Source: Bradymonadia bacterium
GTDB lineage: Bacteria > Myxococcota_A > Bradymonadia > UBA7976 > UBA1532
Length of the DNA stretch: 64,000 nucleotides
Direction: 5' to 3'
Assembly (NCBI GenBank): GCA_046290225.1
Contig: JBKAGE010000071.1
Span: forward strand, 32,001-96,000
The notes below the pieces were generated by a model, which was given only the letters and a program-made list of their open reading frames with translations, had not been told where the DNA came from and did no database searches. The translations under genes and the position numbers were made by a program. Below, piece after piece: positions 33,792 through 34,910 of this stretch. Numbering within the stretch: the stretch's first letter is position 1; each line of letters begins with the position of its first letter.

Positions 33792-34910
33792 ATGCGTTCG
33801 AGCAGAGCACGCTTCGAATTCGTCGTCATGGTGATGCTGTTGATCGTCCTCTCGCTGACTGGCCAGATCGCGCGCACGGTGCTGTGGTCGCACGGGTGGG
33901 GAGACTGGGAGGCGCCGTGGTTTTCGTGGGCCACGTCCATCCATCGAGGCGTCGCACTGATGTACGCCATCCCCTTCGCGGTCAAGTGGCTGCCCGTTTT
34001 ACTTTATGCCCCACCTGAGGCCCAGGCCGGCCCATTGAGGCGGGCCCTCGCCCGAGGCTCCACGATCTGCTTCCTCGGCGCTCTGGTGTGCACGGTGCTG
34101 GCGCATACCGTGGCCAGCATATGGTTTTGCCTGTTCTTGCCCCTCATGGCGATGAGCATCAGCCTGGAACTCTATGTATGGATCAGCGCCTTGCAGCGGG
34201 CGGGCATGACCTTGCGCCACCCCATTGTCTGGGGCGTTTTAGGCTCGACCTTTGCCACACTGTGGTTTCTCGTGCCGCCCTCGGTGCTCTGTATCAAGCT
34301 GCTTCTGACGGATGTGCTGAACATCGACGAGCGCGCCTTGCTCACATATGGCATGGAGACGCTGACGTTCTCCTGGTGGGCTGCCTATGCGATGACCGCG
34401 CCGTTGCTGGCAGGGCTCGCAGTGAGTCTCGTGTCACACACAACGCGCCACAAACACATCATGTGGTGGATCGCTCTCCCAATGGCCTTGAGTGCTTTTG
34501 TGCCTCTCTTTCTGGGCGCGCTCATGGGCACGCTCGGGCGTGGGGCACTCATCGATACATACGCCACCGTCGCGGTGCGGCATGGCACGATCCTGAGCGT
34601 GATCGGCCTCAGCGGCCTGATCGTGGCGCTGCCCCAGCTGAGTCGAGCGTCTCAGGCCAGTCTTGCCTTCTGGGTCGTCGGCAGCACCCTCGCCGTGTGC
34701 TTGAGCGAGACGTGGCTGGGCTTCAATGGCATGTCTCTGGGTGAGCCAGATGTTCAGCCACAGTTCGAGCATATGCACCGCGTAGCGGGTGTGAGCCACT
34801 GGGCACTCGTCGCTGGATGGTGTGTGATGTTGCCCCTGGTGTGGCGGGGGGTCAGGCGGGGACTCAAGGGGCATGACCCGGACATGAACCGGGCTGGTGT
34901 GTTCGATTGA
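33792..34910 (+). CDS. Polytopic membrane protein resembling a degenerate heme-copper oxidase subunit I
   Basis: About 10 TM helices; colinear echoes of CoxI motifs (TSIH, RAGMTL..PIVW, LLLTD, DTY..VA..H, FW, LG..GM). The CDS is more certain than the family call. Confidence 0.6.
   Translation: MRSSRARFEFVVMVMLLIVLSLTGQIARTVLWSHGWGDWEAPWFSWATSIHRGVALMYAIPFAVKWLPVLLYAPPEAQAGPLRRALARGSTICFLGALVCTVLAHTVASIWFCLFLPLMAMSISLELYVWISALQRAGMTLRHPIVWGVLGSTFATLWFLVPPSVLCIKLLLTDVLNIDERALLTYGMETLTFSWWAAYAMTAPLLAGLAVSLVSHTTRHKHIMWWIALPMALSAFVPLFLGALMGTLGRGALIDTYATVAVRHGTILSVIGLSGLIVALPQLSRASQASLAFWVVGSTLAVCLSETWLGFNGMSLGEPDVQPQFEHMHRVAGVSHWALVAGWCVMLPLVWRGVRRGLKGHDPDMNRAGVFD

Follow-up and report, generated by a model that had tools for sequence, protein, structure and literature searches.

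A stand-alone offshoot of cytochrome oxidase subunit I that has lost its binuclear-site ligands and may bind a single low-spin heme

The window analysed here, a 64,000-nucleotide stretch from the genome of a Bradymonadia bacterium, contains a compact gene for a degenerate version of subunit I (CoxI) of the A-family oxidases. The gene converges with katG, with only 12 bp between the two stop codons, an arrangement already described in the original prediction. The features of the locus are listed below; residue numbers such as H61 follow bovine COX1 and were transferred by fixed offsets from the CoxI of this genome.

33775 to 33780, plus strand: GAGAGG, a putative ribosome-binding site recognized from its sequence, 11 nt 5′ of the ATG.
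33792 to 34910, plus strand: degenerate A-family oxidase subunit I, 372 aa, with about 10 membrane helices that correspond to CoxI helices I-VI and IX-XII.
33873 to 33875, plus strand: R28, aligned with CoxI R38 and kept in the relatives.
33942 to 33944, plus strand: H51, the likely counterpart of CoxI H61 and predicted first axial ligand of a low-spin heme; invariant in the relatives.
34386 to 34388, plus strand: Y199, the retained counterpart of CoxI Y244 (the cross-linked tyrosine); H240 is lost (W195 by hand alignment).
34455 to 34475, plus strand: approximate junction of helices VI and IX, where helices VII-VIII (with H290, H291 and K319) appear to have been deleted.
34575 to 34577, plus strand: V262, aligned with CoxI H376 (the heme a3 ligand); the His-to-Val change is also present in all three relatives.
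34581 to 34583, plus strand: H264, aligned with CoxI H378; it would be the second axial ligand of the low-spin heme and does not vary among the relatives.
34698 to 34700, plus strand: C303, aligned with CoxI F425 in helix XI; the Phe-to-Cys change is also present in all three relatives.
34728 to 34742, plus strand: GMSLG, aligned with CoxI GMPRR; both arginines are gone (R438/R439 correspond to L316/G317).
34923 to 37256, minus strand: katG catalase-peroxidase, the convergent neighbour, with a Pfam peroxidase match.

The open reading frame looks like a real gene. Its coordinates and every motif quoted in the original prediction are present in the sequence, and the same protein is already recorded as a called protein in NCBI and, starting at residue M13, in Logan. 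GC content by codon position is 0.60/0.49/0.785, with a mean GC3 of 0.82 for the genome (2344 training ORFs), while the other five frames across the same interval carry 3-23 stops each and none of 2000 base shuffles yielded an equally long frame. The codon adaptation index is low, at the 2.9th percentile. No promoter-like site was found for the gene, and a terminator scan returned one terminator-like site, located within the ORF and at chance level. Hydropathy analysis gave 10 hydrophobic segments for the 372-aa protein; applied to the CoxI of this genome, it gave 12.

The katG product carries an N-terminal extension with a hydrophobic stretch ending in LTAC that resembles a lipoprotein signal, suggesting a membrane-anchored, exported catalase-peroxidase. 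Upstream of katG, 37538-40942 (minus strand) encodes a 1134-aa protein whose codon use is typical of the genome and for which Pfam gave no significant match; a second LRR protein lies at 41134-42024 (minus strand). The first LRR protein is a WD40-plus-LRR fusion at 30280-33810 (minus strand), which is divergent from the CoxI-like gene; its listed GTG start overlaps that gene, and its true start is probably near 33670. Beyond it are a lipoprotein-like protein that combines an HEXXH metallopeptidase motif with a VHL beta domain at its C terminus (28914-30278, minus strand) and a secreted-looking protein of 988 aa that has a coiled-coil stalk and Gly-X-Y repeats like those of collagen (25337-28303, minus strand). 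We considered a functional tie to katG and rejected it, since a relative of the CoxI-like gene described below has other neighbours; the adjacency is probably incidental. No gene for subunit II or III lies nearby, as had been claimed, and indeed the sole subunit II gene of this genome is on another contig (C37), within an intact cox operon. The genome encodes an intact aa3-type operon (subunits II, I and III), a cbb3 ccoNO fusion and a heme a synthase. With both oxidases intact elsewhere, respiration does not depend on the compact copy, which is released from that task; the synthase means that heme a is available. We detected neither a second degenerate copy in this genome nor a gene that encodes helices VII-VIII on its own.

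The 372-aa protein derives from A-family oxidase subunit I, and its kinship with CoxI exceeds chance. A Pfam scan gave no PF00115 match at E<=1, and scans of NCBIfam (E<=10) and of PDB sequences gave no relevant match. Nonetheless, BLASTP against the genome's CoxI aligned 127 residues at E 2e-4, and a profile of 28 CoxI sequences from related genomes recovered the protein at E 0.021, ranking it third among 73,876 genome frames, behind two real oxidases. The COX1 profile comparison proposed with the original prediction likewise came out in its favour, as a profile of 107 CoxI sequences detected the protein at E 1.5e-7. The match of residues 222-365 to CoxI beat all 300 of 300 shuffles. In a blind search of 400 other genomes of the phylum, four of seven matches were intact YS-type CoxI and the remaining three contain stops; among plasmids, the top three of four matches were annotated as subunit I (E 0.08-2).

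Structural comparison, also proposed at the outset, gave a divided answer. The Atlas model of the protein (pTM 0.74) superposes on COX1 with a TM score of 0.70 across 338 residues, and its ten best feature matches with a family all point to the same assignment. Our own AF2 models (pTM 0.30 and 0.47), in contrast, did not reproduce the CoxI fold in full, with TM scores of at most 0.33. The first was a single-sequence model for which a Foldseek search is meaningless. The second, in which the N-terminal part is unpacked, placed oxidase subunit I first in Foldseek (E 0.03, TM 0.24-0.33) and gave Z 11.7 and rmsd 5.1 over 197 aligned residues within residues 147-362 by VIA, a result that is partly circular because the model was seeded with 52 CoxI fragments covering helices IX-XII only. 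Homology to subunit I is thus present in both sequence and fold, and it places the protein in the heme-copper oxidase (HCO) superfamily by descent.

In CoxI, H61 and H378 bind the low-spin heme a, and H240, H290, H291 and H376 form the CuB-heme a3 site. Assigning these positions is complicated because CoxI is an internal repeat, and for this reason we scored helix pairs pairwise. With an A2 profile, the diagonal pairs I-II, III-IV, V-VI, IX-X and XI-XII gave Z scores of 2.9, 2.1, 4.8, 4.3 and 7.2, respectively; TM3-4 of the query also matched VII-VIII (Z 2.4), and with a small A1 profile TM1-2 matched VII-VIII best (Z 3.0). Among colinear models with a single deletion, loss of VII-VIII scored 102, compared with 23 for loss of I-II, 38 for III-IV and 43 for V-VI. 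The colinear motif map of the original prediction is therefore the best-scoring model of this class. It also agrees with the proposed deletion of the helices carrying H290 and H291; the loss of VII-VIII is what the best colinear model implies, set beside non-colinear models at 92-109. MAFFT alignment with full-length CoxI produced an N-terminally truncated register, which we rejected on score (23 versus 102). The favoured N-terminal register, in which H51 corresponds to H61, is likely correct.

In the favoured alignment, the protein retains R38, H61, Y244, D369, T370, Y371, H378, G432, G435 and M436. For the low-spin ligand pair that was said to be kept, the assignment of H264 to H378 is firm and that of H51 to H61 likely, both by alignment. 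The claim that H240 and H376 are replaced holds in part: the heme a3 ligand position is occupied by V262, and H240 has no partner in the automatic alignment, where it meets a gap; only alignment by hand pairs it with W195. The His-Tyr cross-link is missing its histidine partner, the arginine pair is gone as had been stated, H368 aligns with I254, and F377 aligns with R263. Of the proton channels, D91 of the D-channel aligns with P75, beside E76, and K319 of the K-channel belongs to the segment inferred to be deleted, although a rival register pairs it with K65. Of the CuB ligands (H240, H290 and H291), the favoured colinear alignment contains none and the rival registers at most one; a complete binuclear site is absent from every alignment model. 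Because H240, H290, H291, H376 and R438/R439 are lost, the protein cannot be an oxidase or an NO reductase. Indeed, the high-spin heme and second metal that define the cNOR, qNOR, eNOR, sNOR, gNOR and nNOR types, as given in PMC11214002, find no ligands here. The twelve helices of CoxI are likewise reduced to 10 segments.

Database searches with the protein returned almost nothing beyond itself. It was the only match in a 5.8-billion protein set (1 of 8000 candidates scored) and again among 1.84 billion representatives; a search for longer proteins gave 0 of 8000 candidates, none of 168 pattern matches on metagenome contigs was a close relative, and 30 other genomes of the order contained no close relative. 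Of five weak matches from a search for relatives, the two that were examined are unrelated. A profile built from the query and C-terminal fragments of CoxI, run over 28 genomes of the family, revealed a single non-canonical match of 363 aa in genome G017 (L151:5313-6401, plus strand), which stands alone among unrelated neighbours, so that the compact gene was found in two of the 28 genomes. The L151 protein in turn has relatives at 91% and 54% identity. A combined profile run over 121 and 401 genomes revealed no further member among the 16 and 5 candidates scored per genome. Further members were also sought with the relatives' own profile in the 28 genomes, and in metagenome contigs; the other matches of all these searches are CoxI-length or contig-cut frames, as judged from the table.

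The L151 group aligns with CoxI along its length (hhalign 98%, E 2.4e-13), although a Pfam scan of the group gave no match, and one of its cluster members is named 'hypothetical protein [Myxococcota bacterium]' at its source. The group keeps R38, H61 and H378 and lacks H240, H290, H291, H376 and R438; it also lacks Y371. A second compact copy, in a genome of the same family, carries R38, H61 and H378 together with the changes H376>V and F425>C. The distance between the two histidines is 213 residues in the query and 219 in the relatives, versus 312 in CoxI, and an unseeded MAFFT alignment placed H51 and H264 opposite the relatives' histidines. The two histidines are thus conserved in the only relatives found, which are very distant from the query (hhalign E 0.014, probability 3%; BLASTP E 0.69); among the three relatives themselves, four of the nine columns with a histidine in any of them are invariant, so that histidine conservation there is not special. 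The relatives have 11 hydrophobic segments, and the VII-VIII deletion is not clearly common to them; they appear to have become shorter in another way than the query. A further invariant histidine of the L151 group lies in helix XI, at the position of CoxI N422 and three residues ahead of the shared cysteine, and two more histidines occur near helix X; none of these is present in the 372-aa protein.

To compare the two lineages, we counted residues in four gap-free blocks of 109 columns, 25 of which are at least 95% invariant in 107 CoxI sequences. The query keeps 10 of these 25, all three relatives keep 9, and seven are common to both (R38, H61, T370, H378, G432, G435 and M436), where 3.6 would be expected under independence; choosing R38/H61, H378 and G432 as anchors for the blocks makes their conservation look higher than it is. 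In addition, 9 of the 47 columns at which both lineages leave the CoxI consensus have acquired the identical new residue (expected 3.2-3.4; P 0.002 by permutation, 0.004 under a substitution model), with H376>V and F425>C, both at otherwise invariant positions, among them. A tree of 51 rows grouped the query with the L151 lineage (UFBoot 96), a clade that may reflect long-branch attraction given a query branch of 4.8 substitutions per site over the 109 columns. A common origin of the two lineages is likely. Were the origins separate, an identical ligand pattern would have evolved on two occasions, a stronger argument for selection on the heme site. The residue pattern is consistent with selection for a low-spin heme site, in a family that is small and evolves fast.

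On balance, we lean towards reading the gene as a stand-alone, diverged copy of CoxI that has lost the binuclear ligands, likely holds one low-spin heme and is not an oxidase. With VII-VIII deleted, the catalytic pocket would have collapsed. Best conserved would be the helices that enclose the low-spin heme in CoxI (I, II, X, XI and XII), and the residues retained by both lineages fall in helices I, II and X and in the XI-XII loop. One six-coordinate low-spin heme would then sit between H51 and H264. R28 would remain beside it; in CoxI, R38 hydrogen-bonds the heme a formyl group (PMC10194837). Since histidine would fill both axial positions, O2 and NO would find no free coordination position on the predicted heme. 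Uptake of electrons from CuA is unlikely because R438/R439 and H368 are lost and subunit II is not a neighbour. The remaining role would be to bind and buffer heme (a or b) in the membrane, and the protein might also pass single electrons to and from membrane quinones. Taken separately, heme binding by the protein is somewhat more likely than not, and a buffering role, were heme bound, is about an even matter. Of the repurposed one-heme protein originally proposed, the descent from CoxI, the loss of the binuclear site and the retention of the low-spin ligands stood, as did the view that this is not simple decay; the suggested electron conduit from CuA proved unlikely for the reasons given, and the suggested redox sensor is unsupported, with no output domain and no neighbouring regulator.

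The main structural objection to a one-heme protein is that the query has lost both propionate-binding arginines. R438, R439 and Y54 anchor the heme propionates, and the query is without all three. This loss counts in favour of a cofactor-free membrane protein, a fast-evolving accessory gene that uses the CoxI scaffold for a structural or unrelated role and in which H51 and H264 are packing residues or chance survivors. The low CAI and patchy distribution would suit such a gene, as would the retention of only 27 of 91 near-invariant CoxI residues. However, both lineages have kept exactly the two low-spin ligands together with R38 while losing every binuclear ligand, and polar histidine and arginine residues in the middle of the membrane would be unlikely to persist without a partner. 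Therefore, we regard a cofactor-free protein as rather unlikely.

A different question is whether the N-terminal half is mis-registered. Helices VII-VIII could have been moved or duplicated N-terminally, so that H34 or H105 would equal H290 and K65 would equal K319, while H51 would not be H61 and the protein would hold some other metal or heme site. Non-colinear models of this type, which shift VII-VIII into the N-terminal half, scored 92-112 against 98-102 for the favoured model; residues 106-149 fit helices VIII-IX better than IV-V in an HMM comparison (E 0.003), and residues 59-65 closely resemble the end of helix VIII. Cross-matches of this kind are expected of a three-fold internal repeat, however, and the model requires a rearrangement besides a deletion. 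Furthermore, the spacing from R38 to H61 is exact in the query (23 residues), the relatives, whose match to CoxI helices I-II is clear, align their histidine with H51 and share a FAV at +11, and the Atlas model aligns 338 residues to COX1. For these reasons, we consider a mis-registered N-terminal half improbable. Least probable of all, and by our estimate very improbable, is a decaying, functionless duplicate under relaxed selection, with the two lineages as independent relics: extreme divergence, the orphan status of the protein (only itself in 1.84 billion representatives), low CAI and the lack of conserved neighbours would suit a relic, but identity to CoxI has fallen to ~21-28% in conserved blocks with no stop or frameshift, the deletions are clean and helix-scale, GC3 is genome-typical, three relatives at 52-91% identity are every one full length, and a neutral copy would presumably have broken long before such divergence.

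The nearest known protein to this putative one-heme offshoot is A-family subunit I (CoxI/CtaD, PF00115), specifically the YS-type (A2) CoxI of the same phylum, with bovine 1OCC and T. thermophilus 2YEV as structural references. The two share fold, helix order and the retained residues listed above. They differ in length (372 versus ~550 aa), in helix number (~10 versus 12), in Pfam detection, below which the 372-aa protein falls, and in the distance of subunits II and III; of the CoxI residues discussed, the protein is without H240, H290, H291, H376, H368, R438 and R439, and it has P75, beside E76, opposite D91. A further degenerate subunit I was observed in genome G005 (L038:3193-6997, plus strand), where a 467-aa frame that matches PF00115 weakly (43 bits) directly precedes a 592-aa B-family-like subunit I. 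Like the 372-aa protein, this paralogue coexists with an intact oxidase in the same genome, but it is near full length and operon-linked, whereas the 372-aa protein is compact, stands alone and retains only the low-spin ligand pair.

Pei et al. 2014 reportedly described HCO-homology proteins that are not oxidases, such as NnrS and proteins made of a single four-helix unit, some of which may bind heme. Such families (NnrS and the DUF families) are large and old and have Pfam models of their own. The 372-aa protein resembles them as a non-oxidase membrane protein made of HCO four-helix units; unlike them, it is recognisably carved from A-family CoxI and comprises about two and a half units, and it gave no match to the HMMs of these families at E<=1 in Pfam or E<=10 in NCBIfam. 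Two small proteins (L040:2698-3183, minus strand; L041:2861-3409, plus strand), each ~130 aa long, carry a His-rich motif, match CoxI weakly and resemble the single-unit type. The study of Pei et al. 2014 is cited in PMC4602095, PMC11218638 and PMC12329440, and YgdD (PMC4602095) belongs in the same comparison. A literature search for a compact, stand-alone CoxI derivative with only low-spin ligands found none, and Pei et al. 2014 may cover similar proteins. The NO reductases eNOR, sNOR, gNOR and nNOR offer another comparison, since they too are descendants of oxygen reductases that keep the HCO fold with changed ligands; they retain a high-spin heme and a second metal, and gNOR is called the first family to replace even one active-site histidine (PMC11214002). 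The 372-aa protein has lost all four. Judged by its sequence, the protein is a member of the HCO superfamily by descent that lacks what defines O2 and NO reductases, and it is a non-catalytic CoxI offshoot with the look of selection, probably one of a family that is small and evolves fast.

We further suggest, tentatively and as a doubtful proposition at present, that the two lineages represent an undescribed Myxococcota family of compact, stand-alone, single-heme cytochromes carved from CoxI, in which the catalytic half was discarded and the heme a pocket (R38, H61 and H378) was remodelled by H376>V and F425>C. F425 may contact heme a in CoxI, a contact for which our literature search found no paper, and the new cysteine in helix XI could tether the heme or tune its redox properties.

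If the protein and its relatives were cofactor-free or relics, they would amount to one more degenerate subunit I. If they bind heme, a low-spin heme site would have survived as a protein of its own without the O2-reducing site and with ~100 residues between the ligands removed, a natural dissection of heme a binding and tuning in the absence of the binuclear centre. Were the proposed single-heme family to prove true, it would provide a natural minimal version of the oxidase electron-transfer site. Such proteins fall under Pfam detection and are filed as hypothetical, and more of them may be hidden.
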